From positions 32,001 to 96,000 of the IMG/VR virus record IMGVR_UViG_3300033076_001145: a stretch of 64,000 bases of DNA. The stretch is one strand, 5' to 3'. Both the position numbers and the translations under genes were made by a program. Of the stretch, positions 15,458-60,925 are shown one piece after another (the first letter of the stretch is position 1; every line of letters starts with the position of its first letter). This DNA is from a virus. Lineage: Duplodnaviria > Caudoviricetes. The notes below the pieces were generated by a model, which had not been told where the DNA came from, did no database searches, and was given only the letters and a program-made list of their open reading frames with translations.

Positions 15458-15846
15458 TCAAAAATCTCTTTTTCTTTTTTCTTATTTTTTTTAATAAAAA
15501 GTTTTGTAACTTCTCCAGACTTCGCGTTTGCAAAATTTTCGGATTCCCCTCCAATATCCTTTCTATCTTTAATATTTAATTTTTCATGGTCATACGCATG
15601 AGCCCACTCGTGTGACAGAGTTCTTAATACATCCGCAAACATTCTCCCCTTAAATAAAATACGAATTCTGTCTTTACCATTATTATATGAACCTGTAGTC
15701 ATGTCTTTAGTTTTTTCGTCTAATAACATTATTTTTAAATCATTCTCTAATGGCATTTTAGTTTGTAATAATTTACAAAATTTTTTTAAAAGTTCGAGTT
15801 GAGTTTTTTTAACCGTATTTTTTTTATATTTAAAACAAATTTTCAT
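15454..15846 (-). CDS. zincin-like metallopeptidase (HExxH)
   Basis: VLRTLSHEWAH...SENFAN. Confidence 0.65.
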   Translation of the reverse strand: MKICFKYKKNTVKKTQLELLKKFCKLLQTKMPLENDLKIMLLDEKTKDMTTGSYNNGKDRIRILFKGRMFADVLRTLSHEWAHAYDHEKLNIKDRKDIGGESENFANAKSGEVTKLFIKKNKKKEKEIFD

Positions 15847-16852: not shown

Positions 16853-18721
16853 TTATCTTAACTCGTTTAAGTCGAATGTACGTACTCCATCAACTGTGAT
16901 ACGTCCGAAGAAACGGTTGTTAACCATCTTCTTAGCGTAACGTGTCATGATACCTTTGATAGGTGTGAAGTTGAATGGGTTGTACATAGTTGGTGTTAAT
17001 TGTAATGGTACGTATGGAGCGTAGATGTAACCAGTATCCAACAAAGAAGTACCTTTGTGACCAATCAAGATAGTGTTTGGTGGGAAGTATGGGTCACGAT
17101 ACACTTGGTAACGTCCACTCAATGTTCCAACTCTTTCAATACCCATGTTATATTGGTCTTGCTCAGGAGCTGCGTTTGATACGTGGAAGTATTGTAAATC
17201 ATCAAAAATCGCAGAGATTTCAGAAGATACAACAATCCAGTTAGCACCACCTCTCAAAGTAGACTTGTGGATTTGAGCTGAGATTTGGTTAATCGCAGTA
17301 ATCAAAGTTTGGTTCCAGTCTTTTTGAGTGTATGGAGTTGCTTGGTTATTCAGTCTCTTCCATCCGTTGTAATCCCAACGTAATGTCCAAGCCGCACCTT
17401 TACGTAAGTCACGTAAGATTTCACGGTCAATTTCAGCCGCAACTTGCTCTGACAATAATGCTGTCAATTCAGCTTCAGCATCGATGTTGTGGAATGCCGC
17501 AACGTCTTGAGCCAATTCAGGAGACCATTGTGCTCTTAACTTTCTTTCAGTTACAGAAACTGTTACTGACTCTAAGTTGAAAGAAACTTCACCAATTTTG
17601 TCTTCGAATTCTAATTCTTCATAACGTCTCCAAGCCGCTGTAATATTAGTAGTACCTGACCATACAGAGTTGGTTAATGTTGCTCCTGAATAACCGTCAG
17701 GTGTTGATTGAGAACATGCAATACATGCAGGAACTTGTGTGTCAATCTCTAAATAAATTACTCCCGCCGCATTACAAATGTTATAAAAACTACCACCATT
17801 ACCGTCAGTTGGATATGTAGTTTTTGTTTGAGTTCCGTAATCAACAATACCGCTACCGTATTTTTGAGTAACAACACGATAAAGTAGTGGAGTCGCAGTA
17901 GAAGTTCCTAAATTAGTCGCAGCTGCTGAAACATTTGTAAATAACACTAAATTAGACAAAAATGATTCAGTATCCATTTCTTGACCATCAGGACCTATTA
18001 ATTTTCCGTCCCCAACTGTGGTAAATCCAGATAAACCAACAATGATTTTTCTAAATTCTTTAGTTCCACTAGCGGCTTCACCATTTACAGTATAACCTGA
18101 AACAATCAAATTACCATTACTCCAAGCAACTGTTTGAGTAAGTGCGGTCATTACTGTAAATCTTCCTTTAGAATAATCAAATAAACCAGCAGGATTTAAT
18201 CCAGGTTCAGTACCTTCATAGAACAAATCGTAAAGATTTTTAGCATATGGAGTACCAACATTTGACCCAGGATAACCAGCATTTGCATCTCCACCATAAT
18301 TCCCTGGAGAACCTTGTGGTGCGAAATGGTCACCTGAATTAGTATTTCCTCCGGGATATAGAGCGTTTGTTGAAGCTCCAGTATATCCTTGGATTTGAGG
18401 TACGAAGTAGAACAATTTACCGATTGGTAAGTTCATAGCTTGTACAGAAACGATGTCATTCGCTAACAATTTAGAGAATACACGTCTGATGATTGGGAAT
18501 ACAACAGTTTCAAATGAACCTGAATCCGCAGTTGATGATGACTCGTTGATTAAGTGAGAAGCTTGGTTCTCATACAACTGTGCAACATTTTCTTTTAGGT
18601 GGCCTCTAAGACCTTCTAGGAACCCTAATTTGTCCCATTTGCTTATAGTGTCTTCTTTGATAACTTTAAGGTGCTTAAGACCGATGTTACCAACTAATCC
18701 ACTTTCTAATAATGCTCCCAT
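16853..18721 (-). CDS. major capsid protein (T4 gp23-like) with large insertion
   Basis: IRRVF..L.A.DIVSVQAM..P.G..F, RKLRAQWSPELAQD...H.IDAEAEL..LLSEQVAAEIDREI, YAPYVPL, TRY. Confidence 0.97.
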   Translation of the reverse strand: MGALLESGLVGNIGLKHLKVIKEDTISKWDKLGFLEGLRGHLKENVAQLYENQASHLINESSSTADSGSFETVVFPIIRRVFSKLLANDIVSVQAMNLPIGKLFYFVPQIQGYTGASTNALYPGGNTNSGDHFAPQGSPGNYGGDANAGYPGSNVGTPYAKNLYDLFYEGTEPGLNPAGLFDYSKGRFTVMTALTQTVAWSNGNLIVSGYTVNGEAASGTKEFRKIIVGLSGFTTVGDGKLIGPDGQEMDTESFLSNLVLFTNVSAAATNLGTSTATPLLYRVVTQKYGSGIVDYGTQTKTTYPTDGNGGSFYNICNAAGVIYLEIDTQVPACIACSQSTPDGYSGATLTNSVWSGTTNITAAWRRYEELEFEDKIGEVSFNLESVTVSVTERKLRAQWSPELAQDVAAFHNIDAEAELTALLSEQVAAEIDREILRDLRKGAAWTLRWDYNGWKRLNNQATPYTQKDWNQTLITAINQISAQIHKSTLRGGANWIVVSSEISAIFDDLQYFHVSNAAPEQDQYNMGIERVGTLSGRYQVYRDPYFPPNTILIGHKGTSLLDTGYIYAPYVPLQLTPTMYNPFNFTPIKGIMTRYAKKMVNNRFFGRITVDGVRTFDLNELR

Positions 18722-20577: not shown

Positions 20578-21297
20578 TTATTTTCCTAAATAATCGTTTA
20601 ATTTATTCATTAAATCAAGTGATTTTAATCCACCTCTCTCTAAATTTTGTAATTTTTCCTCTTGTAGATTTTCCTCAAATTTGTATTGGTCATCTTTTTC
20701 TTTGAATAGGTACGCTCCAGGTGTGGATGGTGCTTGGACTAAGTCAAAACAGATTAATTCAAAGTCGTCCTGAACTTCGTTTTGTTCTCCCACTTTTTTT
20801 AATGAACCAACACCTCGAGATGATATACCCAAAGTGACACCAAGTCTTAATAGATTAGCCGCTTGGTCTCCCTTTGTAGATACAATACCTCTTTCATGAA
20901 ATCCTGGTGACGTTAATAATTTTAATTTACCAATTAAAATATTTTTATCCCACCAAATATCAGTTATAATATGAGATACTCTATCCAAATCAATTAATGA
21001 TGATTCGGGGTGATTAAGTTCAGACAATGCTGTATTTTTCTTAATATAATTTTTAGTATAGTTATCTGCTTCTCTTTTTAATACTCTTTCAGGATATATT
21101 CTACCATTTCTATTCGGGGTATTAAACTTTTGTAACACCGCATAAAACTCAAATGGTTTAGAATAATCACCCACTTCGAATGATTCTTTTATTATTCTAT
21201 CATTAGAGAATTCAATGGGTGACACATACCCTGCGTCATATTCAACAAGAATTCCCTTACCCGTATCTTTTGGCCCTAAAATTTTATAATTTTGCAT
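20578..21297 (-). CDS. prohead protease (T4 gp21-like)
   Basis: NRNGRIYP, ELNHP, LDRVSHII, GISSRGVGS, FDLV..PS.PGA. Confidence 0.95.
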   Translation of the reverse strand: MQNYKILGPKDTGKGILVEYDAGYVSPIEFSNDRIIKESFEVGDYSKPFEFYAVLQKFNTPNRNGRIYPERVLKREADNYTKNYIKKNTALSELNHPESSLIDLDRVSHIITDIWWDKNILIGKLKLLTSPGFHERGIVSTKGDQAANLLRLGVTLGISSRGVGSLKKVGEQNEVQDDFELICFDLVQAPSTPGAYLFKEKDDQYKFEENLQEEKLQNLERGGLKSLDLMNKLNDYLGK

Positions 21298-22615: not shown

Positions 22616-24430
22616 TTAATCATTTAACAAGTTTTTCAAAGTACTGTCCATTTCGAGTAATGTTTTTTTGGCTTTACTCAAATCTATCTCCTCATTGTCA
22701 TTCGCCCAATCACCTTCCAATATAATATTTAGTTTGGTTTCCATTGATTCGGGGGCTAATCCAGGTCCTCCTGCCGGTTCAGATGGAGGTGCCGGAGATT
22801 CAGATGGTGGTGGTGGGGTAAATCCTCCACCTATATCACCACCAGGTGTTTCTCCACCTTCAGCAGGTGCTGCGGGTTGTTCTCCTTCTTTCTTACCATA
22901 TAATCTATCTAAATTATCAAATAAACCTGTATGTGTAATAACCTGAGCAGTATTTGTTAATTCTGCCCCTACCGCCTTTTCAATTCTTTGTTGTTGTAAA
23001 TCCAACTTAATTTCTTCATCAGAAAATCCTAAAATATGTTTCTTAGCCCATGATATTGATGTAGGAGCAATTCCTTCAATCGGAGAAACCATGTCTTTAT
23101 ATAGTAGAATCTTTTCTTTCCATACATCAACTCCCAACAAATCAGCTTGTTTTGATGGGTTAGTTAATGACAATGTAAAGTTGGATATTTCATCTTCAAA
23201 TCCAAGTAAGAATAAATGTACAATAGCAATTTTATTCAATTCCTGTAACATACTTTTTTGTATTCTATTGATAGTTCTCGCAAAACGTATGTCCATAAGT
23301 GCTAAGTTCTTACCGTCACCAACAGACTCCTCAAATCCTAAAAATCCTTTAGGTACTCTTAACGCTGTTAATAATTTCTTTTGGATGTACTCAATATCCG
23401 CAATTTCAGAAAGGTTTTGAGCTCCAGGTAGTGTCTCAATTGGAGATGCTTGTGACGGGTCACGAACAGGAACAAAATAATCTTGGTCGACGGCCATTTG
23501 ATTAAATCTCATATCCACATTTCCACTTTGTGGGTCAACGGTTTGAGACCTTTTGAATTTATTTGCAAATCTTTGGATATATGGTTCAACATCCGCATCA
23601 TCCATATTACCAACAAATACCTTAAATACCCTTCTTTCAGGTGCTCTTGATGTTCTATAAATTAACATCGCATCTTCAGACAATAATAACTGTTTCCAAA
23701 TTCTTCTCGCCTTTTCCAACATAGAAGTCCCATATGGTAATCTTCTATCGTCACCTAACAATCTAAAGTGAGCAATTTCCCAAGAATTGAATTCCATATC
23801 CTTTTGTTTCCATTTGAATTTTAGAACTCTTTTAGATGGGTCAGTTTCAGGGTCAGTTTTCTTAACGCCCATTCCCGCCTCATGTCTTTCAATCTCAATG
23901 TTTGGTAATTGCATACATCCAACAACTCCCTTTTCAGGATTCAATTTTAAGAATACAAAGTTGTCACCATACTTACATGTGTTTCGAGTCCACATTGGTA
24001 AGTTGGTATTGATGTCCAAAGAATTAATAAATAAATCGACTAATATTGATTTGATTCGTTTTGAATCAGAATAGATTTGTAGGATGTGTCCATCTTGGTT
24101 AGATGTAGTCGATTCTTCAGCATATATATCCAACGCCGCTGAAATCTCAGGAGTAAATTCCATCGATTCATAATCATAAAAAGATGCCAATCTTGTTGGT
24201 TCATAATATACCGCTTGGGTATAAAGATTGTTTTCAATCCTCCCCCATTGGTTTGCCAAATAGTATGTTTGTCTGGCTTCTAATTTTTCTTTTTCATATT
24301 CTTGTTTAGAAGTTGTCTTTAAAAGTTCTTTCTTATCGAATGAATACGTTGGGTAATCTTGTCCCAATAGTGAATTAGGTCCAAATGCCTGTGATAACCT
24401 TTGCCAAACTGTTAAATTTTTTTCACTCAT
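22616..24430 (-). CDS. portal protein (T4 gp20-like)
   Basis: EDAMLIYRTSRAPERRVFKVFVGNM, DYFVPVR, IETLPG, DIEYIQKKL..AL.VP, RFARTINRIQ. Confidence 0.95.
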   Translation of the reverse strand: MSEKNLTVWQRLSQAFGPNSLLGQDYPTYSFDKKELLKTTSKQEYEKEKLEARQTYYLANQWGRIENNLYTQAVYYEPTRLASFYDYESMEFTPEISAALDIYAEESTTSNQDGHILQIYSDSKRIKSILVDLFINSLDINTNLPMWTRNTCKYGDNFVFLKLNPEKGVVGCMQLPNIEIERHEAGMGVKKTDPETDPSKRVLKFKWKQKDMEFNSWEIAHFRLLGDDRRLPYGTSMLEKARRIWKQLLLSEDAMLIYRTSRAPERRVFKVFVGNMDDADVEPYIQRFANKFKRSQTVDPQSGNVDMRFNQMAVDQDYFVPVRDPSQASPIETLPGAQNLSEIADIEYIQKKLLTALRVPKGFLGFEESVGDGKNLALMDIRFARTINRIQKSMLQELNKIAIVHLFLLGFEDEISNFTLSLTNPSKQADLLGVDVWKEKILLYKDMVSPIEGIAPTSISWAKKHILGFSDEEIKLDLQQQRIEKAVGAELTNTAQVITHTGLFDNLDRLYGKKEGEQPAAPAEGGETPGGDIGGGFTPPPPSESPAPPSEPAGGPGLAPESMETKLNIILEGDWANDNEEIDLSKAKKTLLEMDSTLKNLLND

Positions 24431-38980: not shown

Positions 38981-39472
38981 ATGACACAAGGTGTATTGGT
39001 TTTAAATTCAGATTTCAGTCCTATTAATGTAACAACCCTACATAGAGGTTTCGCATTAGTTTATAAAGGAAAGGCGGAGATTCTCAAATCTTCCGATGAG
39101 CCAATAGTATGCGGAATTAAACAATATATAAGACCACTAATCATACGATTACTTTCTTATGTTAGTTTTAAGAGAAGAAAAATAAGAGTAAATCGACATA
39201 GAATTATGAGACGAGATGGATACTCTTGTGTTTATTGTGGTAGTAAAAAAGATTTAACAATTGACCATGTTATTCCAAAGTCAAAAGGTGGTGATAACAC
39301 TTGGAAGAATCTTGTAACATGTTGTAGTCCTTGTAATTTAAAAAAGGGTGATAAATTATTACATGAGACAAATATGAATATGATAAAAAAACCCACAGAA
39401 CCTAATATATTTTCGGACTCTGCGGGTCAATATTTACAGAAAGTTTGGAATGAATTCCAAAATAGTTTTTAA
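38981..39472 (+). CDS. HNH endonuclease (McrA-like)
   Basis: VLVLN.DF.P, RDGYSCVYCG...LTIDHVIPKSKGG..TWKNLVTCC..CN..KGD. Confidence 0.9.
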   Translation: MTQGVLVLNSDFSPINVTTLHRGFALVYKGKAEILKSSDEPIVCGIKQYIRPLIIRLLSYVSFKRRKIRVNRHRIMRRDGYSCVYCGSKKDLTIDHVIPKSKGGDNTWKNLVTCCSPCNLKKGDKLLHETNMNMIKKPTEPNIFSDSAGQYLQKVWNEFQNSF

Positions 39473-40872: not shown

Positions 40873-42456
40873 TTATTTTGTTTTAAGTGAATCAACTTTT
40901 TGTTTTATGTTTTCTTCCACACCATCGACCCATTGTTTGAATTTGTCATAACTACTTGACGCAATTTCAAATTCAATCGGGGGTTTATCTTTAACTCTAT
41001 ACCAATCTGATAAAGTTTCTGTTGGAGTTTCATTTCCCTCAGCATCCATAACCATCTCAGATTTAATAAATCTTACAACCATTGCTCCACCTAATTTTTC
41101 ATCTGAATAGAAAGAACTTTGAATTTGATTATTTATTGTGTAACCCGTTGGTGAGAATTGGAGACTTCTCCTCTTAGCAGCTTCTTCTATTTTTGACATT
41201 AATTCATTTCTATCATCTTCATCTTCAATATCATTATAATAAACAGAATTATCAAACCCATCAGCAATTGCTTCTCCTGCCGCTGACATTCCATCGTTAA
41301 CTACTTCTTTTGTAACTCCAAAAATTTCAAATATGTTAATTTTTCCATCAGATAAGTCATAAACTAATCCACCAATAACAGTAATACCCAAAACATAAGC
41401 TAAATAACATCCAAGTTTTTCTTTTTTTACAACGTCCCCGCTTTTTTGTGTTGCCAAACTAAAACCGGTCCAAGTTTTTACAGAGCTTTGTGTCACTTGT
41501 TCCCTAACAGTACAACCCAATTTAGTTGTTACCCTTTCCAAATTACTTAAATCAATACCATTTAATTTTGCAAATTTGTCAATCTCAGCTGGAAAGTCAA
41601 ATCCATATCCACCTTTCGATGTTTTAGAAGCACCCTCGAGCCAATTTTTTAATCTATCAAAATCTTCAATATTTTTACCATCTTTAAAATAATTATAAAT
41701 TTTAGGGTCACGATTGTATTTTATAAGTTGGTCTAAAATCCCCAATGGATTTTTTTTATTAATTTCTTCTTGTATTTTTAACCACATCTCCTCTAATAAT
41801 TTTTCTAAGTCCCCACCAACAACTATAGTTTCTCCGGTTTTAAAATGTTTGTTTAAATAATTGTTAGTATCTGTACTTGTAACTTTTTCCGCATATTCAT
41901 CAACTATAATGTCAGGTATTCCAAATTGAGTTTTTAAGTTATCTAAAAAATTAGTCCATTCAGTAATTTTGTCTACCGTTGAGATTTCTTTTGACATCTC
42001 TTTCTTTTGTAAGAATTCCCATTTTTTCGCAATAACGTCATACAATTTGAATTGTTTTCCTGAGAAATCGATGATGGTTTCCCCAATTTTTATTGCGGAT
42101 GATTCAAGAACTTCTCTAAATGCAGGGTTTTTTAACAAAAATGACAACATTTCTTCTAATTCTACCGAAGATTTACTTTCAACTTTTTCAAAAAATTCAA
42201 CTAAAACTTCGTTAGTTGTTCTCGGATTTGACTTTGACGAATTGGTCGCAATTTTATCAGCCAATGATTCTCCCTCCACAGTAAATTTTCCAGGGTTATC
42301 CCTAAAATATTTTTCAATTTCATCTTCACTTTTTTTATCAAATAATGCGTCTAAAATTTTTTCCCAAGTTTTATTCACTGCCGCCGCTTCGGTTATAACT
42401 TTAAGCCCCATTAATTCTCTGTACCTATTTATTTCTGTTAAAATTTTTTTATTCAT
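40873..42456 (-). CDS. leader-bearing protein with one TM-like segment
   Basis: MNKKILTEINRYRELMGLKVITE; YLAYVLGITVIGGLVY. Confidence 0.7.
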   Translation of the reverse strand: MNKKILTEINRYRELMGLKVITEAAAVNKTWEKILDALFDKKSEDEIEKYFRDNPGKFTVEGESLADKIATNSSKSNPRTTNEVLVEFFEKVESKSSVELEEMLSFLLKNPAFREVLESSAIKIGETIIDFSGKQFKLYDVIAKKWEFLQKKEMSKEISTVDKITEWTNFLDNLKTQFGIPDIIVDEYAEKVTSTDTNNYLNKHFKTGETIVVGGDLEKLLEEMWLKIQEEINKKNPLGILDQLIKYNRDPKIYNYFKDGKNIEDFDRLKNWLEGASKTSKGGYGFDFPAEIDKFAKLNGIDLSNLERVTTKLGCTVREQVTQSSVKTWTGFSLATQKSGDVVKKEKLGCYLAYVLGITVIGGLVYDLSDGKINIFEIFGVTKEVVNDGMSAAGEAIADGFDNSVYYNDIEDEDDRNELMSKIEEAAKRRSLQFSPTGYTINNQIQSSFYSDEKLGGAMVVRFIKSEMVMDAEGNETPTETLSDWYRVKDKPPIEFEIASSSYDKFKQWVDGVEENIKQKVDSLKTK

Positions 42457-42476: not shown

Positions 42477-44138
42477 TTATTGTTTTACCTTTGTTGTGTC
42501 ACTCCCAACTAAATAATCTACAAAATCATCTCCAAAAATTGCAATTAATTCTTCTTTAGGTGTTGAATTAATTTTTTGTTGTACCAATTCAGATTGTCTG
42601 TTTATTAAATCTTGTGTAATTTTTACTGCGTTTTTATATTCTTCACTATTTTTATCTGAATTATAACCGTCTATTATAGATTTTGCAACAATTTCTCTTG
42701 ATTCTTCAGGAATCTCACTCAAAAATATATAAACAGTATATTCCTCAATCGGAGTTAATTCAGAACCCTTTATTTTAGTTAATACATCCCCTAACTGGTG
42801 TATTAAAGTGATGTCCATAGCTAAAGTAGAAGCGAATTTAGCTAATCTTTTACCTGATACTAAAGTTGCCTTGGGTAAATTCTTAATAGAACCGGATAAT
42901 AATGTACTAAATAATCCTCTTACAGTTTCAATCTTTATTCCATTTTTCTGTATTTCCTGAGAGGCCAATTTAACTATTGACTCATACATACTTTTTATTT
43001 CACTTGTTTTTAATTGTGAAACAGACGCCAAAATTTCTTTTAATTCAGGTTTTAAACTTTGATACAATTCACCCCACTCTGAACCTGTTTTTGGTGATTT
43101 TTGAATAATTAATTCGGAAAGTTCTTGACATAATTTTGTAAATTTATCTTTTCCAAATTTTTTTACAACCTCATCCAAAACCGGAGAATATATTTTTCCA
43201 TGTATTAACGGTAACATTGCAAAAAATACATTAAATGCGGTCGCCTTTGGGTCGTCCCATATTTTCCATTGTACCGCACCTACTGTTAAATTAAAAACCG
43301 CATTAGCGGCATATGCACACATTACAACGTATGGGCCGCACGCAATACTCGCAACGTCTAAAACTATTTGAACGACCATTTCAATATGTAATCCAAAGTC
43401 ATCCCAAAAAACTTTTGAGGGGGTTCTCTTATCTATAAATGTCTGGGGGTTATAACTTGTCCATTTGGATGGGTCTTGTTTATCCTGGGTAAATACACTT
43501 TTTTTAACTACCCATCCTCTAGAATTTTCTTTTGGATTAATTGACATATCTCTATTTTCTACAGGTAATTCAAATAATTTAACAAAGTCAACGTCTTCCG
43601 GTAACTCAGATAAAAAATGTTCATCTAAATTAAAATCAAACCATCCTGTTTTTTCTTCTCTTAAAACTTTTGTTCCTTTTGGTATTTTGAAACCGATGAA
43701 GTCAGTTAAACCTTGCCCATCTTCCCAGCTTGGGTCAGGGTAGTACAGTTTTGTATTTTCATCCACATTTGAAAAGATTCTATTATTACCAATCCTTTGT
43801 CTTATAGTTTTAACGTAATTATATCTTCCCTTATCGTCAATTCCATCATATTTTAACCCTTTAATAAATGATTCACTATTATTAGGAGCAATTCCTACCG
43901 CACTCTGAGGTACTTCGTATTTTTCATTACCAATAGTTATCGTTTTATATGGGGTAATAGGTCCTTCATTTTCTAATTGTTTAAAAAAGTTATCGGAAAC
44001 ATTTGGTTCTGTCGCCAAACTTGGATACATTTGACCATATTGTTCTAATAAAAATTCTAAATTTTCAGTAAGAGTGGTTTTATTATCGTATTTCATCAAT
44101 AACAAAACTCTTTCTAATATTTCTTTCTTATCACTCAT
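42477..44138 (-). CDS. leader-bearing protein with hydrophobic hairpin
   Basis: MSDKKEILERVLLLMKY..TLTEN..LLEQ; VVQIVLDVASIACGPYVVMCAYAANAVFNLTVGAV. Confidence 0.7.
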   Translation of the reverse strand: MSDKKEILERVLLLMKYDNKTTLTENLEFLLEQYGQMYPSLATEPNVSDNFFKQLENEGPITPYKTITIGNEKYEVPQSAVGIAPNNSESFIKGLKYDGIDDKGRYNYVKTIRQRIGNNRIFSNVDENTKLYYPDPSWEDGQGLTDFIGFKIPKGTKVLREEKTGWFDFNLDEHFLSELPEDVDFVKLFELPVENRDMSINPKENSRGWVVKKSVFTQDKQDPSKWTSYNPQTFIDKRTPSKVFWDDFGLHIEMVVQIVLDVASIACGPYVVMCAYAANAVFNLTVGAVQWKIWDDPKATAFNVFFAMLPLIHGKIYSPVLDEVVKKFGKDKFTKLCQELSELIIQKSPKTGSEWGELYQSLKPELKEILASVSQLKTSEIKSMYESIVKLASQEIQKNGIKIETVRGLFSTLLSGSIKNLPKATLVSGKRLAKFASTLAMDITLIHQLGDVLTKIKGSELTPIEEYTVYIFLSEIPEESREIVAKSIIDGYNSDKNSEEYKNAVKITQDLINRQSELVQQKINSTPKEELIAIFGDDFVDYLVGSDTTKVKQ

Positions 44139-44139
44139 T

Positions 44140-44394
44140 TTACCAAATCTGATTTGCAATTCCTCTTGTTAATCCTGTTGACCATTTTTCACCGGCTTTA
44201 CCCAACATATTTGCCTTACCTCTTTTAGTTTGATAAAACTCTTCCCACTTTGGGACTTTTGGATACCCTTCAGTGGAACCTCCCCCACCTCCTGACGGAG
44301 CCGCTTCACCTTGTTCTGACAACTCACCATCAACAGAACTTGGGTTGGATAAACTTCTCAACAAGTTAATGTATAAATCAATATTATATTCCAT
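44140..44394 (-). CDS. small late protein with LSE site
   Basis: GELSEQ...KWE...RGKANML; TATTTAT upstream. Confidence 0.65.
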   Translation of the reverse strand: MEYNIDLYINLLRSLSNPSSVDGELSEQGEAAPSGGGGGSTEGYPKVPKWEEFYQTKRGKANMLGKAGEKWSTGLTRGIANQIW

Positions 44395-49032: not shown

Positions 49033-49059
49033 AAAAAGGGATTTAAAATCCCTTTTTTT
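49031..49059. terminator. bidirectional terminator
   Basis: A7-GGGATTT-a-AAATCCC-T7. Confidence 0.75.
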
Positions 49060-49984
49060 ATTGTTGTGGTTTAACTTGTTCTTTTCCAGGGGTAATCTGA
49101 TTATTATATATTTTCTCGGCCCTAGGTAAGAAAACATTTTTATAAACACTTGGTAATTTTTCCAAAGCCAATTTAAACTCGTCTAATGATAAATCGGTAA
49201 TTAATTTTTCATTACGATAATAAGGTCTTGGAGAATTGGTAACTTTACCCGTATTTGGGTTAATTAATTTAAATGCGGGATTTACTGGTGAAGGGGTAGG
49301 TAAATAATATTTTGTTGGAGGGTCGGTTCGGTTATCTATTAAATAACCTAAAACAACATTTCGAGTATCCGGAGTTGATTTCTCAAAAGCTCGATACTCA
49401 ACGGGGGTTAGTTCCCAATCCGCAGTAGTTAATTCTATCGTATACGGCTCCAATTTACTCTTTTGTTTAATTTCTACCGGAACATCTTTTTGTCGATATT
49501 CAGCATTTAATTTTATTCTAAAATACTGATACTTAACACCTTCACCTTGTTGTATTTTTTTATCCTCAGTAATTGTGATGTTTTTTAATATTTCAGGATT
49601 AATTTTTTGATTTAATAATCCCATGATATAATTTTTTGCCGATACTAATCTCTCGTTAGCTAATTCTGCATTTCTTTGTTTTGAACCGCTTGTTGATGTT
49701 GAAGCTTCAATGGTCATATTAATTTTTTTATTTTCCCATTTATTGTCTTCTAAAATTTTTGACATCTCATCAACCTTTTTATTCAACACATCCAATTGTT
49801 CTTTTGGTAAATCACTAATTTGACCTTTATTTGTTGGAAAATATGCTGGTATTACTCCACTATCCCAATTTTTTACCGTTTCAACTTCCTTTTGTTCATT
49901 CAAATAAAATTTCTTGGTCGCATCGATATGCATACCCAATATTCTTTGTTTCTCACTTTCATTTATCTCAAATAAATTTTTCAT
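49058..49984 (-). CDS. leader-bearing protein with OmpA-C-like domain
   Basis: MKNLFEINESEKQRILGMH..LNEQ; YF......I.IEAST...G...N.ELA..R......Y. Confidence 0.55.
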   Translation of the reverse strand: MKNLFEINESEKQRILGMHIDATKKFYLNEQKEVETVKNWDSGVIPAYFPTNKGQISDLPKEQLDVLNKKVDEMSKILEDNKWENKKINMTIEASTSTSGSKQRNAELANERLVSAKNYIMGLLNQKINPEILKNITITEDKKIQQGEGVKYQYFRIKLNAEYRQKDVPVEIKQKSKLEPYTIELTTADWELTPVEYRAFEKSTPDTRNVVLGYLIDNRTDPPTKYYLPTPSPVNPAFKLINPNTGKVTNSPRPYYRNEKLITDLSLDEFKLALEKLPSVYKNVFLPRAEKIYNNQITPGKEQVKPQQ

Positions 49985-53040: not shown

Positions 53041-53778
53041 ATGACAAATGTTTCAGAAGAAATTTTAAATTTTATAAATTCAGAGTATTCAAAAGAGGTT
53101 CTACCTGATATTGCAGTCATTACTGAAATGAGAGGTAGTGATAGTATAAGACAATCAATTGATGTTTATAACTACGGAGATGTCAATTATTATTATTCTC
53201 CATATTTTGACACGGGGTCAAACAAAGATTTAGATGTTGGTTATATAAAATCATATTTAGACTCCCTTTATAACACAATTATCAATAACGACCCATTTTT
53301 CAGAGACGAGTTATATAAAGAATATGGTGATGATGTCAAATACTTTTCAATTACTATAGTTTTGAATTTTGAAACAAAAAAATTGGAGCTTAGTGGTTAC
53401 GGTATTGAGGACTCAACAGATTATTCTCAAAGTGAGTTTGAATTTACCGAAAATGATGACAAAGAAATATACGATGTGTTAGAAAATTATCTCAATCAAG
53501 GATATGAATATATTACTGTCAATTTTTCAGGTGGAGGTGATTCAGGTCAATTAGATGGTTTTTATTCCGGAGGGTATCCGATTGAAGAGAATGGAGTATT
53601 GGAGGATGCTCTTTACACCCTATTAAATCAACATCAAGGAGGATGGGAAATTAACGAAGGTTCTCAAGGAGAATTCGATATTAATTGTAAGGATAAGACA
53701 ATAGTTCTAAACTTCGGAATGAACTACGAAAGAGAGATTGATTTTGATAATGATTGGGAAATAGATTTAGATTTTTAA
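53041..53778 (+). CDS. DUF6878-like protein
   Basis: V.FSGGGDSGQ...GGWEINEGSQGEF; start 4 nt after TATTTAT. Confidence 0.65.
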   Translation: MTNVSEEILNFINSEYSKEVLPDIAVITEMRGSDSIRQSIDVYNYGDVNYYYSPYFDTGSNKDLDVGYIKSYLDSLYNTIINNDPFFRDELYKEYGDDVKYFSITIVLNFETKKLELSGYGIEDSTDYSQSEFEFTENDDKEIYDVLENYLNQGYEYITVNFSGGGDSGQLDGFYSGGYPIEENGVLEDALYTLLNQHQGGWEINEGSQGEFDINCKDKTIVLNFGMNYEREIDFDNDWEIDLDF

Positions 53779-54101
53779 AAAATCTGAATTGTTCTTTGTG
53801 GTCTGTCGTCACCAAAGTCAGGACAAAAATAAATATTCTTAGCATCGTGGTAGATTGTTCCACCAATTCCATTTGGAATTTTGTGTTTTTCCATGAACTT
53901 ATCATCAACATCAATTTGGTGATTGCCGTCATGAACTACAAAACATTTGTTCTCAAAAGAACAATGATATTGTTGTGATTTATTTTTTTCTCTGAAAAAC
54001 TCTTCAGGAGACATAACATATCTTGCAACATTTTCATTCATCAATTTCTTAACAACTTTCTCTAACTGACTCTCAGTTATATTGATAATTTTCTTTTTCA
54101 T
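53775..54101 (-). CDS. leader-bearing small protein
   Basis: MKKKIINITESQLEKVVKKLMNE. Confidence 0.7.
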   Translation of the reverse strand: MKKKIINITESQLEKVVKKLMNENVARYVMSPEEFFREKNKSQQYHCSFENKCFVVHDGNHQIDVDDKFMEKHKIPNGIGGTIYHDAKNIYFCPDFGDDRPQRTIQIF

Positions 54102-54124: not shown

Positions 54125-56074
54125 TTATTTCCAACCGTTTTTATAAATATTAAATTCTTTAATTCTTCTTTTTAGATTCGCCCAATTGGTTGTAAAATAC
54201 TTCTCAACCGAATTACTATTAGGATTTTTTTGAATTACTTTTGCCAAATTAGAGTTACGATATCCCCCAAGCCCTGCATTATAAACCAAAGAAAGTAATG
54301 CGTCTAATTGATTTTGTTTTAATTTATCATGGTTAGGAAGACTAAGTAATCTCGGTAATAAATTATCTAGTTTTTTTGTAACTAAATTATGAGCTTGTTG
54401 TTTATTTACCTTACATTCAATATCCTTTACTCCAATTTTTTTCTCTTCACCATATGTTCTACCACAAAACTGTGCCCCTTTTGGTATATATACAGTCCCA
54501 TATCCGATAGTTAAAGTTCCTTTAGGGTTTGTTCCAGGTTTATAACATTTAGGTGGGTAGTATCCATCATCATAAACACAAGGAACAAATTCCTCAACTG
54601 CCTTTAAATAATTCACAAGATTAGATGAGTATGTCTTTGCGTTTCCAACTGGTTTAGATGTTAATTTTAACATCTCATCTCTCGTATAAACTTTTCCTGT
54701 CTTATCGTTCCACAATCCTGCCTGTTTTAACCAATTAGTGTCAATATCATTCTTTGTCCCGACATTGGTCCCTTCTTCCACCGCCATCCAAAAACGAGTA
54801 AAGTTTTGTTTTGCCTTATCCCAACCATATTTTTTAACACTTGCATTAAACCAAGTTTTCCAATCGGCAAATTTCCACCAACTATCTGGACCCCAATCAT
54901 CTAAATCGGGATGTGAATCTGGGTTTTTAGGGTCGGCGCCTTCTGTTTCATTTAAATGGTTTATAGACTCAGTAGTTTCAGGTTTCAAAACCGTCATGGC
55001 TTCAGGAAAATCTTTATCCAAAACTTCTTTGTTTTTATTCTCATATGGTATGTTTTGTAAAACATATCTAATAGCATTTAACCCTGAAACTCTCTTATCA
55101 TTTGCATCCAAAATAACCCATGGATGATTTACAGTTGATGTTTTATCAAAAAGTTTTTGTTTAAATTCCGAGAATCTGTCCCACATATCTTGCATTTTCT
55201 CGTCATTAGGAGAGTATTTCCAATACTTTATGGGTGATTGTTGTCTCATTTGGAATCTCTTAGCCTGAGTCTCCTTATCAATAGAAAACCATAACTTAAA
55301 CAGATAATCTCCGTCTTTTACAAGGTCTTTTTCAAAATCTTCAACATTATTCATGAAATCCTCATATTCCTCAGGTGTTCCATAACCCATAACAGGTTCA
55401 ACAAGGCCTCTATTATACCAACTTCTATCAAAAAAGTTAATCATACCTTTTTGAATTTGGTTTCTATATCTATCCCACCAAGCCTTTCTCTCCTCAGGTG
55501 TTGGAATACCTAACGCAATGATATTATAGTATCTTGGATTAAGATTTTCTGTGAATTTTTTTATTGTGGACCCCTTTCCTGCTGAGTCTCTTCCTTCAAA
55601 AACAATAATAACAGTCTTACCTGTTTTCTTTATCCACTCTTGCATTTTTAACAACTCAACTTGTAAGTAGTATAATTCTTTATTATACACTTTTTTCTTA
55701 ATCATTGAGGGTTCCTGAGGTTCAAATGTAAATTCTTCAGGTTCTGGTTCCCCATCTTCAAAATCTTGTTTGTTTCTTTTTTTAAGAGTTTTTAAAATGG
55801 TTTGAAGATATTTTGTAATGTTCTTTTTTTTGTCACCTTTTTTCATTAAAATATTACGGACACCTCTTTCCAATAAATCAAAGTTGATTGGGTGTTCATA
55901 TCCTTGGTCTAGTATTTCATATAATAATACCTCGACATCCTTGGTGTATAATTTATTCTGTTTTAAAATATTTGATATTACAAATTCATAATCCTCTGCG
56001 GATTTAACATCTTCGTTTATTTTTACACCTAATAAACTTCTAAACCTATTAACTTCTGAAATTAATTTTTTCAT
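54125..56074 (-). CDS. ppk2: leader + polyphosphate kinase 2 + Trp-rich domain + GH24 lysozyme fusion
   Basis: LQVELLKMQ, EGRDSAGKGSTIK, FDRSWYNR, R...P.K.WK.SPND; C-terminal E..VPCVYDD, TIGYGT, QNQLDAL.SLVYN.G, L.RR..E. Confidence 0.88.
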   Translation of the reverse strand: MKKLISEVNRFRSLLGVKINEDVKSAEDYEFVISNILKQNKLYTKDVEVLLYEILDQGYEHPINFDLLERGVRNILMKKGDKKKNITKYLQTILKTLKKRNKQDFEDGEPEPEEFTFEPQEPSMIKKKVYNKELYYLQVELLKMQEWIKKTGKTVIIVFEGRDSAGKGSTIKKFTENLNPRYYNIIALGIPTPEERKAWWDRYRNQIQKGMINFFDRSWYNRGLVEPVMGYGTPEEYEDFMNNVEDFEKDLVKDGDYLFKLWFSIDKETQAKRFQMRQQSPIKYWKYSPNDEKMQDMWDRFSEFKQKLFDKTSTVNHPWVILDANDKRVSGLNAIRYVLQNIPYENKNKEVLDKDFPEAMTVLKPETTESINHLNETEGADPKNPDSHPDLDDWGPDSWWKFADWKTWFNASVKKYGWDKAKQNFTRFWMAVEEGTNVGTKNDIDTNWLKQAGLWNDKTGKVYTRDEMLKLTSKPVGNAKTYSSNLVNYLKAVEEFVPCVYDDGYYPPKCYKPGTNPKGTLTIGYGTVYIPKGAQFCGRTYGEEKKIGVKDIECKVNKQQAHNLVTKKLDNLLPRLLSLPNHDKLKQNQLDALLSLVYNAGLGGYRNSNLAKVIQKNPNSNSVEKYFTTNWANLKRRIKEFNIYKNGWK

Positions 56075-56138
56075 ATATAATAAATATTACAAAAAATAAT
56101 TGATACTTTTTTAAATTACACTATATTTAATTAAAAAT

Positions 56139-56241: not shown

Positions 56242-57075
56242 ATGAAAGACACAAAAACTTACAACGAATTAGTTCAAAAAATGAGAACTTTTTTCCAATC
56301 AAAAGGATTTTTAGAAGTCCCAACTCAATCGAGATTATCAATCTTAGCCGCATGTGAGAATCCACATTCAATTACAACATTTAATTACAGTGGAGAAGTT
56401 TGGCCATTACCACAAACAGGTCAAATGTGGTTAGAATATGAACTATTAAAAAATCCTGAGTGGAATGGTGTGTATTGTATCTCAACTTCCTACAGACAAG
56501 AAAAAGAACCAATCCCTGGCAGACACTCATTAATTTTTCCAATGTTTGAGGTTGAGAGTAAGGGGACTATGTCCGACTTAATAAAATTAGAATCTGAACT
56601 TTTAGAATACTTAGGATTTGATTCTCCAATTAATTTAAAATACGATGATGTGTGTGAAGAGTATGGGAATGTTAGTATTTTAGAGCATGAACATGAGACC
56701 CGAATGTGGAAGGAAAAAGGTAATTCAGTATCTTTACAATTTTTCCCTTTAAGAACTAATCCGTTTTGGAATATGAAACGAAATGAAGATGGAACTTTCA
56801 ATAAAGTTGATGTTATTTTATATGGACAGGAAACAATAGGTTCAGCGGAAAGAAGTTGTGATGTTAATGAAATGAGAGAAATGTTTTATACTATTGAGGA
56901 TGGAAAATACTCAGAAAAACTTTTTGAATTATTTGGAAAAGAAAGAGTTGAGAGAGAACTTGAGGAATTCCTTTCAATGGATTTCTTCCCTCGTTTTGGG
57001 TGGGGATGTGGTCTAACTAGATTAGAAAGAGCGTATAAATTAATGTTAGAAGAAAAAGAAATTAATTTTGTTTAA
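56242..57075 (+). CDS. class IIb aaRS catalytic-core paralog lacking an anticodon domain (AsnRS-like/asparagine synthetase A-like)
   Basis: R.FF..KGFLEVPT, LPQTGQ..LE, motif 2 SYRQE....RH..IFPMFEVE, ETIGSAER, motif 3 FGWGCGLTRL. Confidence 0.8.
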   Translation: MKDTKTYNELVQKMRTFFQSKGFLEVPTQSRLSILAACENPHSITTFNYSGEVWPLPQTGQMWLEYELLKNPEWNGVYCISTSYRQEKEPIPGRHSLIFPMFEVESKGTMSDLIKLESELLEYLGFDSPINLKYDDVCEEYGNVSILEHEHETRMWKEKGNSVSLQFFPLRTNPFWNMKRNEDGTFNKVDVILYGQETIGSAERSCDVNEMREMFYTIEDGKYSEKLFELFGKERVERELEEFLSMDFFPRFGWGCGLTRLERAYKLMLEEKEINFV

Positions 57076-57089
57076 GTAATTTAAGAAAA

Positions 57090-57833
57090 TCATTTTGAAT
57101 TGATTTTAATGGACTTCAAAAATTTTAATTGTTCAATATGGTTTTCTTTTATTTTTTTTATTAGGAACATAGCGTCTTTTTTTTTCTGATTAGAAATTAA
57201 ATTGTAGTATTCTAGTACATTTTTATAACCATCAATCTCAATATTTTTACCGTTAATAACATCGAATAAAAAATATCTCACAGCGTTAGAATTTTTAGAA
57301 CCTTTTGACTTTTCTTTTAACTTTTCTTTAATTTTCAATAAAGTTTCTTTGGTTGATATTGATTGTTTAATTTTAGATTCTTCTGTCCTGATTCTACCTT
57401 TCATAATTTGTCTCATTTGCTCTCCAAAATTTTGAGGTTTTGGTTTTGACTTCCCTTTATTACCTTCAGATATTTTCATTTTTTGTTCATTAGTCATTGT
57501 TTTTCCTTTATGGGATTCAGAAATTTTCTTTTTTGACTCCTCACTTAAAACCCTGCCGTATGAACCCTCACCCCCGTCTGTCATGTTACATAAAATACCC
57601 GTGTTATTATTTTTTCTACCATAAAACTTAATCCAATATTGCTCGCGAATCATTGCATCACTCCAACTAAGATTATCTTCAATTATTTCCCTCTTAATTC
57701 CATGTTTTTTGACAATATTTATCCAAAATTTATTTCTAGATTTATTACTATCAATTCTTTGTTCATCAGAACCAATACCAATATAAAATACTTGATTATT
57801 ATCGGGTCTAACATGTTTATATACATATGCCAT
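57090..57833 (-). CDS. GIY-YIG homing endonuclease with NUMOD3 repeats
   Basis: YVY....FYIG.G...R, E..WI, N.T.GGEG, SEE.K.KISE.HKG. Confidence 0.85.
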   Translation of the reverse strand: MAYVYKHVRPDNNQVFYIGIGSDEQRIDSNKSRNKFWINIVKKHGIKREIIEDNLSWSDAMIREQYWIKFYGRKNNNTGILCNMTDGGEGSYGRVLSEESKKKISESHKGKTMTNEQKMKISEGNKGKSKPKPQNFGEQMRQIMKGRIRTEESKIKQSISTKETLLKIKEKLKEKSKGSKNSNAVRYFLFDVINGKNIEIDGYKNVLEYYNLISNQKKKDAMFLIKKIKENHIEQLKFLKSIKINSK

Positions 57834-57877: not shown

Positions 57878-57907
57878 AAAAATCCCCCTTAATTGGGGGA
57901 TTTTTTT
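57878..57907. terminator. intrinsic terminator
   Basis: A5-TCCCCC-ttaatt-GGGGGA-T7. Confidence 0.7.
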
Positions 57908-58070
57908 ATTCCTTAATTTCAGACATCAATCGTCCCCACAAAAACATCTGTAAAATACCAAAGATAATACCGATGGTCAATACCGATTGATTAGGTGCGT
58001 TTAAGATTAATACTACGATTAATGCCAAGGCCATCATACAAGCGGTCATTTTAAGTTTCAAGTTTTTCAT
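57906..58070 (-). CDS. small two-TM membrane protein
   Basis: MKNLKLKMTACMMALALIVVLIL...IGIIFGILQMFLW; TATATTTG upstream. Confidence 0.6.
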   Translation of the reverse strand: MKNLKLKMTACMMALALIVVLILNAPNQSVLTIGIIFGILQMFLWGRLMSEIKE

Positions 58071-58094
58071 AGTTGTGTGGGGTTTTAATTGTTC

Positions 58095-58134
58095 TACAAA
58101 TATAAACAAAAAATCCCTCGAATGAGGGATTTTA
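58095..58134 (-). promoter_or_regulatory. terminator fused to a TAnnTTTG promoter
   Basis: AAAATCCCTC-gaat-GAGGGATTTT hairpin followed on the minus strand by GTTTATATTTGTA. Confidence 0.65.
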
Positions 58135-58153: not shown

Positions 58154-58600
58154 TTATTTTCTCTTAGTCTTTCTTCTAACGATTGACTCTTCCATATAAT
58201 CTTTATAATGTCCATCAACATCACCGATTTTTTTACCATCTCTTCTTTTGTAATCGTCTTTGTTTCCTCCCCATTCTTCTTCCATCTCACCTTCCATTTC
58301 GTTACCACCTTTTGGTTGATTTTTCTCAACGAAATCTAAAATTTTCTGAGCTTTCTTTTCCTTACCTTGAGCCATTAATTCTTCGGCCATTGATTTTAAA
58401 TAATCATACCCTGCAATACCTAATAAACCAATCACTGTGCCAATGATAGTATAGATAGCGTCAGCTGTTTCCATTGCTTCAGGATTTACGAAATTTTCCA
58501 TTTCATTAATTCTTCCGCTTTTTGTATTTTTTGATTCTTTAACTACTTTTTTAATTATGTTAGTTAATTCACTTTCTGTTAATCTTACAACTTTTTTCAT
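58154..58600 (-). CDS. leader-bearing protein with one TM helix
   Basis: MKKVVRLTESELTNIIKKVVKES; AIYTIIGTVIGLLGIAGY. Confidence 0.72.
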   Translation of the reverse strand: MKKVVRLTESELTNIIKKVVKESKNTKSGRINEMENFVNPEAMETADAIYTIIGTVIGLLGIAGYDYLKSMAEELMAQGKEKKAQKILDFVEKNQPKGGNEMEGEMEEEWGGNKDDYKRRDGKKIGDVDGHYKDYMEESIVRRKTKRK

Positions 58601-58688: not shown

Positions 58689-59114
58689 ATGAATACAATT
58701 AAGAACGGAGATACTGTGTCCGTTAATTACACAGGGAAATTGGAAGATGGTTCAATATTTGACACATCATTACAAGAAGGTCGTGAGCCATTGACCGCAA
58801 CCTTAGGTCAAAATCAATTAATTCCTGGTTTTGAAAACGGACTCATTGGTATGTCTGTTGGTGAAACTAAAACAGTTGAAATTGAGCCAGAAAACGCTTA
58901 TGGGCAACATAATCCAATGCTAACACAAGAAATTGGTAAAGAACAAGTTCCTGCAGATGTTAAAGTTGGTGATATGTTACAAGGTATGTCTCAAAATGGC
59001 CCTATTAACGTTAAAATTGCCGAGGTAAAAGAATCAACAGTAGTTATTGATATGAACCACCCACTTGCAGGTCAAAAACTTATTTTTGATTTGGAAGTCA
59101 TTTCAATTAACTAA
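58689..59114 (+). CDS. FKBP-type peptidyl-prolyl isomerase (SlyD/SlpA-like)
   Basis: YTGKLEDG.IFDTS, LIPGFE..L, PENAYG, DMNHPLAG..L.FD. Confidence 0.93.
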   Translation: MNTIKNGDTVSVNYTGKLEDGSIFDTSLQEGREPLTATLGQNQLIPGFENGLIGMSVGETKTVEIEPENAYGQHNPMLTQEIGKEQVPADVKVGDMLQGMSQNGPINVKIAEVKESTVVIDMNHPLAGQKLIFDLEVISIN

Positions 59115-59152: not shown

Positions 59153-59704
59153 TTACTGAACCATGGTTTGATATTTCCTACCACATATGAATAAATTATT
59201 CTTAAACCATTTTGCAATATCATTTGAATAATACTCATCCCCAACATCGGTTTGTCTCATTTTTGAAACTTTTTCACTTCCTTTAACTGTTGTATTGGTT
59301 ACACTGTCTTCAATCCCTGCGTAATCAGGATTTATTTTTGGTTTGTTTAATAATTTAAAAGTATTTGCCTGACAATCAAATTCAAACATTATTTCTCCAA
59401 GATATTTTGGGTTATCAGTCCCTTCCTCTAATGTTCCTGAGATTCTTACAGTTTGTAATCCTTTAGATGTGATGACTTCAACTTTTTTTAAATGAACATC
59501 CAAATTTTGTTCTCTGTTAAACATTCTTTTCTTCTCAATGAAACCATATTTAGGGTTTGTTTTTAATAACGAATTAATTCTATCAGTTCTTAACGTAGTT
59601 AATTGGTCCGCTTGTTCAGAAACCAATGATTGTTTCACTGCCGTTCTATGCATTTCGAGGATTCTATTTTTCTCGTTCTCTTCAACTAAAAATATTTTTT
59701 TCAT
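59153..59704 (-). CDS. leader-bearing protein; paralog of the C-terminal domain of 59726-60925
   Basis: MKKIFLVEENEKNRILEMH..LVSEQ. Confidence 0.72.
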   Translation of the reverse strand: MKKIFLVEENEKNRILEMHRTAVKQSLVSEQADQLTTLRTDRINSLLKTNPKYGFIEKKRMFNREQNLDVHLKKVEVITSKGLQTVRISGTLEEGTDNPKYLGEIMFEFDCQANTFKLLNKPKINPDYAGIEDSVTNTTVKGSEKVSKMRQTDVGDEYYSNDIAKWFKNNLFICGRKYQTMVQ

Positions 59705-59725: not shown

Positions 59726-60925
59726 TTATTGAGTTTTATTTAAACCACACAATTTTAAATTTGTTTTTAATAGTTTGTAAAAATCAGTATTTGCATATTC
59801 CCCAAATCTTTTTCCTAATGGTAATGATTTTTGGTCAACCACACCCGCATCAGTAACTAATTCGTTAGGATAATCCAAAAGTTCAAAATACCCAAATTCA
59901 TCGCATTTTAAAATTATTGCAACTTTATCTTTGTAATTAGTAAAATCTCCAATAACAACGCAACTATCTAACCCTTCATCCTTAGTGATTATTATGTTTT
60001 CAATTTTAACCTGAATATATTTTTGGGTATTATTTTTTTTCCTAAATGTTAATAATCTTTCAGTTTTTAATAGGTCCTCAATAATCTTATCCCTCCATCC
60101 TTTTTCTTTAGGTTTAGGGGGTTCAGGTTTATCTAATAATATTTTCATGGAGTTTATTCCACTAATTTGAACAGTTTTAGGATTATATCCTTCCTTTTTG
60201 ATTGTTATTGTAATTGGAAATTTGAAGTCGTTATTTTTGAAGGTGTCATTATTAATTATAATTTCTTCTCCATTATAATCGGCAACCACATTATTTATTT
60301 GTTGGTCTGTTACTTTATCATAAACTAAAATATTCAACGGTTTTAAATTAAATGAATATTCGATTGGGTCCCCATTGAAATCTATAAATTCAATTTCATA
60401 ACCTCTCTTCAAAATTTTTATTTCAGAATTTTTTTTGATTCCTGATTTTTTAAATTTTCCGTTTTCATCTGTCTCACCTATAATCTCTTTACCGTCGTTA
60501 CCTGTGTATATAATTTTTACTTTTGGTAATGGAGAACCCTTTTCATCATTAACCACTAAATTAATATCGTTTTGTTCCTGTATATCTAATGTTTTTAATT
60601 CGTCAGAAGTTAAAGTAATATTGTAATTTGTTTCAGTTGGACTTAATTCTTGTTGGTAGTTTTTATATCCGACAAATCCAACTCCAAATTTTGAACTTTG
60701 TGGTGTTGTGGTAATTGTTGCTTGTCCTTCACTATTTGTTGATGTTCCGTCAATCGCCTTTCCTTCTGAATTATAAATTATAACACTTGCACCGGGTATA
60801 GTCTCTCCATTATCTGATTTAACAGTAAATGTTACACTTTTATTGGATTGTTCATTCAACAAATTCTGATACAAATTCAGAATCTCTTGTCTTTCATTCT
60901 CAGTTATTAAAAATTTTTTAGACAT
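59726..60925 (-). CDS. leader + carboxypeptidase-regulatory-like (SusC N-terminal-like) repeats + C-terminal domain
   Basis: MSKKFLITENERQEILNLY..LLNEQ; GETIPGASV...GT.T..EG...FVGY; ETDENGKF...GYE. Confidence 0.72.
   Translation of the reverse strand: MSKKFLITENERQEILNLYQNLLNEQSNKSVTFTVKSDNGETIPGASVIIYNSEGKAIDGTSTNSEGQATITTTPQSSKFGVGFVGYKNYQQELSPTETNYNITLTSDELKTLDIQEQNDINLVVNDEKGSPLPKVKIIYTGNDGKEIIGETDENGKFKKSGIKKNSEIKILKRGYEIEFIDFNGDPIEYSFNLKPLNILVYDKVTDQQINNVVADYNGEEIIINNDTFKNNDFKFPITITIKKEGYNPKTVQISGINSMKILLDKPEPPKPKEKGWRDKIIEDLLKTERLLTFRKKNNTQKYIQVKIENIIITKDEGLDSCVVIGDFTNYKDKVAIILKCDEFGYFELLDYPNELVTDAGVVDQKSLPLGKRFGEYANTDFYKLLKTNLKLCGLNKTQ

Follow-up and report, generated by a model that had tools for sequence, protein, structure and literature searches.

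What would a phage gain from joining a polyphosphate kinase to a lysozyme in one polypeptide, and where would the two enzymes act? This question is raised by a stretch of 64,000 nucleotides (the window) that covers positions 32,001 to 96,000 of the IMG/VR record IMGVR_UViG_3300033076_001145, a tailed phage (Caudoviricetes) contig of 208,634 bp with an estimated completeness of 71%; complete relatives measure 294-321 kb. An uninterrupted open reading frame (ORF) on the minus strand of the window (54125-56074, 649 residues) carries a polyphosphate kinase 2 (PPK2) domain followed by a GH24 muramidase. From comparison with its relatives, we lean towards reading the product of this gene as a capsid-addressed, protease-jointed cargo polyprotein.

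The Fusion Protein and Its Domains

All the elements that an initial annotation of the sequence had listed for this ORF are present, namely a leader, a helical region, the GRDSAGKG and FDRSWYNR motifs, an ESINHLNE-TEG linker, a Trp-rich stretch and a lysozyme. The leader MKKLISEVNRFRSLLGVKINE (56012..56074, on the minus strand as are all parts of the gene; residues 1-21) ends in K-I-N-E and is followed by a phage-specific helical domain (55703..56011; residues 22-124), in which charge counts delimit a basic patch (residues 75-104) and an acidic linker (residues 105-124). The class I-like PPK2 domain (54980..55702; residues 125-365) ends in VLKP365 and matches PF03976 over residues 125-349 (E 8.7e-72, 241.8 bits for a cut-off of 22.3, profile positions 2-228 of 229). 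It is connected to the second half of the protein by the junction ETTESINHLNE (54947..54979; residues 366-376), with LNE at residues 374-376 and a proposed cut at E376|T377; the linker ESINHLNE|TEG spans residues 369-379. The Trp-rich region beyond it (54635..54946; residues 377-480), which is modelled as helices, starts with TEGADPKNPDSHPD, a conserved 'mature' N-terminus, includes the Trp-rich stretch DDWGPDSWWKFADWKTWF from residue 392 onwards, and gave no match in Pfam or Atlas. Last comes the GH24 muramidase domain (54128..54634; residues 481-649), which matches Phage_lysozyme (PF00959) over residues 513-631 (E 5e-12, 46.7 bits for a cut-off of 22.3); the PHROGs match of the C-terminus is also of the endolysin type. 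PPK2 and Phage_lysozyme are the only Pfam domains detected in the ORF, and the gp5-type OB-fold (oligonucleotide/oligosaccharide-binding fold) and beta-helix flanks of a baseplate hub lysozyme were not found.

The fusion is also encoded elsewhere. An independent ENA assembly (P0295) codes for a protein of 649 residues that is 97% identical to the query without gaps, belongs to the same 90% cluster and is followed by the same genes in the same order (a 108-residue protein, then the DUF6878 and DUF6915 genes), which excludes an assembly chimera. The identical protein was found on two JGI contigs, and the architecture, PPK2 plus a cell-wall hydrolase, recurs in more than 40 further contigs from JGI, ENA and Logan.

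The PPK2 domain looks functional, judging by its conserved residues. Walker A (G161-R-D-x-x-G-K-G168), Walker B (D216-R-S-x-Y220) and the lid residues W285, K286 and D291 are invariant in 38 phage and bacterial sequences, and the lid loop pattern W-K-x-S-P-x-D is present. Among solved structures, the domain scores highest against single-domain enzymes of class I (FtPPK2, 5ll0/4yeg, 227 bits; 6dzg/3czq, 205 bits), compared with 62-94 bits for class III and AMP-phosphotransferase entries, and the class assignment follows from these scores. In a model of residues 1-380 (predicted local distance difference test, pLDDT, 85.7; predicted template modelling score 0.85), the helical domain forms four helices (pLDDT 86-96) packed on the PPK2 domain. 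It is kept in the phage relatives; bacterial PPK2 matches align only from about residue 120 and are without it.

The GH24 module also looks functional from its sequence and predicted structure. Its catalytic residues E494 and T522 are invariant among 26 sequences and D503 is conserved in at least 90% of them; the spacing of nine between E494 and D503 is that of T4 lysozyme, and a Cys-containing insertion of about 13 residues is found between D503 and T522. The model of the lysin module (pLDDT 87.8) gave Foldseek template modelling (TM) scores of 0.72-0.77 to the GH24 muramidases 9kbq, 9kbs and 6et6, and of 0.68-0.69 to P22 and T4 lysozyme.

One Locus in Three States

The family to which the protein belongs is large, with 1671 matches in a word-indexed search and 371 loci in IMG/VR. 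All junction and leader counts given here refer to the query and its 120 closest relatives (43 fused and 78 unfused). Three architectures occur at one syntenic position, which is bounded by a class II aminoacyl-tRNA synthetase core-like gene on one side and by the genes for a 106-108-residue protein, DUF6878 and DUF6915 on the other. In the split state (L006, L007), PPK2 ends in ...ILKPEN-stop and the lysin gene overlaps it (TAATG); the lysin begins MNLVKILRNIILE|QKSDPKNPNSYP..., that is, with its own leader MNLVKILRNIILE, then QKSDPKNP and then the lysozyme. The fused state is found in the window, in a 298,572-bp contig (L008) and in P0295. Where the lysin stands alone (L002, L003), it carries a leader of the PPK2 type, with ...GILNE|TEGADP or ...MGLLE|TEGADP at the boundary. 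These lysins share with the fusion the TEG start after Glu, so the residue that follows the Glu is the same behind a leader or behind a whole PPK2 module.

Every stand-alone lysin has a leader of its own, with [LIV]-x-E directly before the common mature start (…DPKNP…). The Trp-rich start of the fusion follows the leader in the stand-alone lysins P0122, P0174, P0270, P0274/5, P0278 and P0290, and P0289 has the same lysozyme behind a leader of a different class. The correspondence is repeated in a second lineage, whose fusions read ...VLKPNINE|QSVFDD and whose stand-alone lysins read MRNLLTEVSKIKSMMGL-KPNINE|QSVFDD.

The junction statistics agree with this series. An [LIVM]-x-E motif lies at most 15 residues past the end of PPK2 in all the fused proteins (43/43) and in none of the short tails of the PPK2-only relatives (0/78), which stop at ...VLKP with 0-6 further residues and without the motif. 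It is kept whatever module lies downstream, be it GH24, a PF18013 lysozyme, a PF07486 SleB-type hydrolase or an unassigned domain, and LNE is kept in P0295 despite differences at three other junction residues. Among distant jumbo-phage relatives, PPK2 is embedded in polyproteins of up to 1430 residues with the motif on both sides, for example LIKE|GFFD...RRELNE|QKE. These long proteins are P0128 (1430 residues), P0129 (1116 residues) and P0130-P0133; their other modules have no Pfam assignment, apart from DUF4314 in some. The split, fused and single states at one locus amount to a natural experiment that supports the existence of the joint.

The Leader Peptide

At the N-terminus, [LIVM]-x-E ends at residues 14-32 in 110 of the 119 complete sequences, and the leader is conserved at the protein level with synonymous codon changes. 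Residues 1-22 and 368-380 have a pLDDT below 50 in the model of residues 1-380, and for the leader such values point to a segment detached from the fold. The protein contains eleven [LIVM]-x-E tripeptides, of which only INE19-21 and LNE374-376 fall in inter-domain segments with a pLDDT below 50. Being charged and amphipathic, the leader is neither a signal sequence nor a signal-arrest-release (SAR) sequence.

A strict hidden Markov model (HMM) of the leader has two bearers only in the 208-kb record. The second is a 527-residue protein (40873..42456, minus strand; E 1.5e-6) with a leader of the same class, MNKKILTEINRYRELMGLKVITE. Neither it nor its large neighbours on the same strand (39469-40866 and 42477-44159) has a Pfam or PHROG match, and all three are candidates for further head cargo. 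A function of the leader as a radical-SAM recognition tag was considered and rejected, as no Radical_SAM gene was found in the record or in two complete relatives (controls, 14/14).

Head Module, Prohead Protease and a Promoter-Like Motif

The window contains a T4-type head module. Its prohead protease belongs to the T4 gp21 family (20578..21297, minus strand; PF03420 Peptidase_S77, E 1.1e-25; phrog_207, head maturation protease, E 8e-46), and an S77 protease is present in all the long relatives with leader-PPK2 that were tested (5/5). The other recognised components are a Gp23-family major capsid protein of 622 residues (16853..18721, minus strand; PF07068, E 2e-73), a T4-type portal of the Gp20 family (22616..24430, minus strand; PF07230, E 2.9e-75) and the large terminase. 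In the capsid protein, the candidate propeptide sites LKE44|N and INE60|S both fit, as they fall in the part of the protein that corresponds to the cleaved stretch of T4 gp23, and residue 28 of mature T4 gp23* aligns to residue 72. About 250 extra residues, which look like an insertion domain, separate its N-arm block (72-106) from the Gp23 core (from about residue 357). A megablast of the head region against cultured phages gave no match; the closest cultured capsid relatives, Microcystis phage Mel-JY01, Flavobacterium phage immuto and RM378, are 37-45% identical. We looked for a bS21 gene and found none, so assignment to the published bS21 lake-phage group is unsupported.

The fusion gene shares a promoter-like motif with genes of this module. 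The motif, ATATTTATT (56079..56087, minus strand), lies 13 nt upstream of the fusion ATG. Of the 303 ORFs of the whole record, 51 have the pattern [AT]TATTTAT[ACT] in sense orientation 12-26 nt ahead of their ATG; as controls, the antisense orientation gave 14, the interval -46..-90 gave 1 and the beginnings of the ORFs themselves gave 5. It is also found upstream of a scaffold-like gene, of h233 and h236 in the head cluster and of the canonical endolysin described below, with near-variants before the protease and portal genes; the ORFs that it precedes include 18755-20245, 21892-22593, 15830-16540, 40873-42456 (where the motif lies at -12) and 49058-49984. Its presence before head genes fits late co-expression, with the timing presumed. 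The TATTTAT-type motif may be the late promoter of this phage lineage and recalls TATAAATA of T4.

A Proposed Route Into the Head

In T4, gp21 cuts after L/I-x-E and strips capsid-targeting propeptides from the internal proteins and from Alt, which are ejected, and foreign proteins fused to the T4 capsid-targeting sequence (CTS) are packaged (PMC9026906). Because the leader and the joint match the cutting rule of the head protease, the fusion protein probably enters the capsid, is cleaved into its two enzymes and reaches the host together with the DNA. The cargo polyprotein would be expressed late by a T4-type jumbo phage, its 21-residue leader would act like the T4 CTS and bring it into the prohead core, and the S77 (gp21-type) protease would cut after I-N-E21 and L-N-E376. 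Two products would result inside the head, one of about 41 kDa (helical domain and class I-like PPK2) and one of about 31 kDa (Trp-rich region and GH24 muramidase). On infection, the two enzymes would be ejected together with the DNA. With host polyphosphate, PPK2 would then convert nucleoside diphosphates (NDP) into triphosphates (NTP) ahead of any phage gene expression, and the muramidase would be an accessory wall-loosening enzyme. We infer cleavage, location in the head, ejection and both physiological roles from sequence comparison.

The initial annotation had proposed that the prohead protease separates the two modules at LNE. Release of the leader and separation of the modules at LNE by a T4-type head protease are well supported comparatively, by the joint counts (43/43 against 0/78), the presence of the S77 protease, the lysin leaders that end where the fusion has LNE, and the predicted flexibility of the sites. 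The annotation had also held that the virion delivers a muramidase for entry, and this part needs revision. Two complete relatives (G002, G003) keep leader-PPK2 without any GH24, so the lysin module, being dispensable there, would be accessory cargo and no required entry enzyme. Across these genomes the tagged lysin varies as an accessory element, and of the two predicted cargoes PPK2 is kept more constantly.

The absence of GH24 from these two relatives is one of several points that weigh against a cargo polyprotein of the kind proposed. [LIVM]-x-E is a short and common tripeptide, and genome-wide, [LIVM]NE is enriched no more than about two-fold close to N-termini, which makes it weak on its own. 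The leader has 21 residues and not the 10 of the T4 CTS, to which it is likened by its terminal motif only. The promoter-like motif also stands before non-structural genes, such as that of a GIY-YIG endonuclease, so that 'late' timing is inferred only. Finally, the virion lysozyme of known myoviruses is on the baseplate, proteins ejected from the T4 head arrive in the cytoplasm, which offers a muramidase no substrate, and all the wall hydrolases documented inside heads come from podoviruses (PMC5380687).

Endolysins and Alternative Explanations

The record contains a separate leaderless endolysin candidate of 278 residues with PG_binding_1 and Glyco_hydro_19 (GH19) domains (G000:C1:189672-190508, equal to L004:673-1509, minus strand, outside the window), which is conserved in the complete relatives G002 and G003 (71% identical). 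Another relative (G001) has a leaderless GH24 endolysin of 152 residues besides its leader-tagged lysin. With such a leaderless enzyme present and no adjoining holin, the fusion does not resemble a canonical endolysin. A 67-residue ORF with two hydrophobic stretches (57906-58109, minus strand), 1.8 kb from the fusion gene, could be holin-like.

These observations bear on one of the two alternatives that survive best, both of which we consider unlikely. It holds that the protein stays unprocessed in the cytoplasm as a late bifunctional enzyme, its PPK2 active during infection and its GH24 module released at lysis as a second endolysin, with the N-terminal peptide serving, for example, oligomerisation, stability or translation. 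The swapping of C-terminal hydrolases (GH24, PF18013, PF07486) on one carrier is indeed typical of endolysins, the ORF with two putative transmembrane stretches is only 1.8 kb away, and a muramidase would be of no use if it were delivered into the cytoplasm. However, canonical leaderless endolysins exist separately, the stand-alone versions of the tagged lysin always have a leader and canonical endolysins do not, and the charged, amphipathic character of the leader is not that of a signal or SAR sequence. An unprocessed protein also gives no account of a joint motif that appears only when a module follows (43/43 against 0/78).

To about the same degree, we doubt that leaders and joints are processed but that the destination is not the head interior (the tail or baseplate in the case of the lysin), or that another protease makes the cuts. 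Apart from the S77 head protease, whose T4 counterpart acts inside proheads, no virion protease was recognised in the record; PPK2 has no plausible role in a tail, and we know of no precedent for propeptide-directed tail assembly. A non-head destination would agree with the usual position of myovirus virion lysozymes on the baseplate, and with the envelope-type domains of other leader bearers (OmpA-like, 49058-49984; CarboxypepD_reg/Big_1, 59726-60925).

The stand-alone lysins of the second lineage consist of a PPK2 leader, KPNINE and the lysin, as though PPK2 had been deleted exactly, and modules are thus clearly shuffled at these boundaries. That the leader and the [LIV]-x-E joints are nothing but recombination scars at such boundaries, without proteolysis, is more improbable again: four-residue joints (EVNE, NINE) always keep hydrophobic-x-Glu before unrelated modules, the leader is conserved at the amino-acid level with synonymous changes, and LNE is retained in P0295 where neighbouring junction residues vary. 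An assembly chimera or frameshift artefact has practically no chance of explaining the fusion, given the full-length, 97%-identical independent assembly in the same synteny, the exact protein on two JGI contigs and the dozens of fused relatives known.

Neighboring Genes and Other Leader Classes

Directly downstream of the fusion gene, the gene for the 108-residue protein (53775..54101, minus strand) begins with a leader of a different class, MKKKIINITESQLEKVVKKLMNE, with [LIVM]NE at residues 21-23; its place downstream of the lysin or fusion gene is kept in L002, L003, L006, L008 and the P0295 contig. At least three leader classes besides the PPK2-type one can be recognized, such as M..I.LTESEL..IIKKV..E and ..ENE[KR]..IL.[ML]H, most of which end in [LIV]-x-E. 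Leaders of these other classes head the ORFs at 13116-13778 (plus strand) and at 53775-54101, 58154-58600, 49058-49984, 59153-59704 and 59726-60925 (minus strand). Their bearers are otherwise unrelated and include the OmpA-like (49058-49984) and CarboxypepD_reg/Big_1 (59726-60925) proteins, whose Pfam domains are the only assignments that PHROGs and Pfam gave for this group.

On the other side of the fusion gene, the conserved divergent neighbor of the PPK2 locus in relatives is represented by a 277-residue protein (56242-57075, plus strand) with a class II aminoacyl-tRNA synthetase core (tRNA-synt_2, E 4e-14) and no obvious anticodon-binding domain. A GIY-YIG homing-endonuclease-like ORF (57090-57833, minus strand; recognized by eye from its N-terminal sequence), with TATTTAT upstream, separates the PPK2 locus from the next gene that has a leader. 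Also by eye, we noted an FKBP-like prolyl isomerase (58689-59114, plus strand), an FKBP_C gene being conserved near the locus in relatives as well, and a 682-residue Clp-type ATPase-like protein (32900-34948, plus strand).

Implications and Comparison With Known Systems

A wider proposal would be that T4-type jumbo phages of presumed freshwater Bacteroidota carry in the head an NDP kinase driven by polyphosphate and inject it together with the DNA, turning the polyphosphate store of the host into NTP before any phage gene is read. We regard this as possible but on balance doubtful. If true, the enzyme could give an energy jump-start in starved cells or counter nucleotide-depleting defenses, both of which are plausible proposals, and it would be a candidate counter to ATP-depleting defense systems also. 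Known phage-injected proteins mostly target host transcription, restriction or the envelope, and an enzyme that makes NTP from polyphosphate would, if injected, represent a new class of take-over factor and tie phage success to the phosphorus and energy reserves of hosts in lakes. Some lineages would use this address system for a muramidase too, which would be the first wall hydrolase delivered from the head of a myovirus-type phage. The size of the family, with its 371 IMG/VR loci, makes the question ecologically relevant.

The locus also presents [LIV]-x-E joints as modular connectors, the modules keeping the motif whether split, fused or alone. The rule so obtained can be used to predict what uncultured T4-type phages carry in their heads, and as a guide to the design of enzymes for packaging in capsids. 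As a mechanism, the T4 CTS/gp21 scheme is already known; what is new is PPK2 as the presumed cargo, a lysin with a putative head address in a T4-type phage, and the series of split, fused and single states at one locus. In the literature searched, phage PPK2 appears only as a metagenomic auxiliary gene, with no PPK2-lysin fusion and no virion PPK2.

The closest parallel is offered by the T4 internal proteins IPI-III and Alt with gp21 (PMC9026906). A Gp23/Gp20/Peptidase_S77 head and a propeptide ending in L/I-x-E are common to both systems and, as with Alt, the presumed cargo is an enzyme and the genes are scattered outside the head cluster. In contrast to the T4 proteins, the cargo here is a two-enzyme polyprotein with an internal joint, known from sequence alone, and neither PPK2 nor a muramidase is known as T4 head cargo.

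The ejection proteins of phiKZ and SPN3US (PMC7411985, PMC10052503) likewise belong to jumbo phages, in which a protease related to that of T4 cleaves many head proteins behind Glu and these are ejected. Their head lineage and cleavage logo differ from those described here, and no PPK2 or lysozyme cargo was found for them in the literature searched. A presumed head-carried, ejected and accessory peptidoglycan hydrolase is shared with the podovirus proteins T7/T3 gp16, SP6 gp36 and phiKMV gp36, which measure 107-143 kDa and build an extensible tail in short-tailed phages (PMC5380687). Here, the hydrolase is a 31-kDa module in a T4-type, contractile-tail head lineage, with proposed proteolytic release.

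Class I PPK2 enzymes, such as Francisella FtPPK2 (5ll0/4yeg) and the Sinorhizobium meliloti polyphosphate:ADP phosphotransferase (6dzg/3czq), resemble the phage protein in having one PPK2 domain, some 230 residues long, in which the Walker A, Walker B and lid motifs are found. Beyond this domain and the activity predicted from it, the phage protein has an N-terminal, phage-specific helical domain that bears a basic patch, a leader of the cleavable type and, in part of the phages, a wall hydrolase fused to it.

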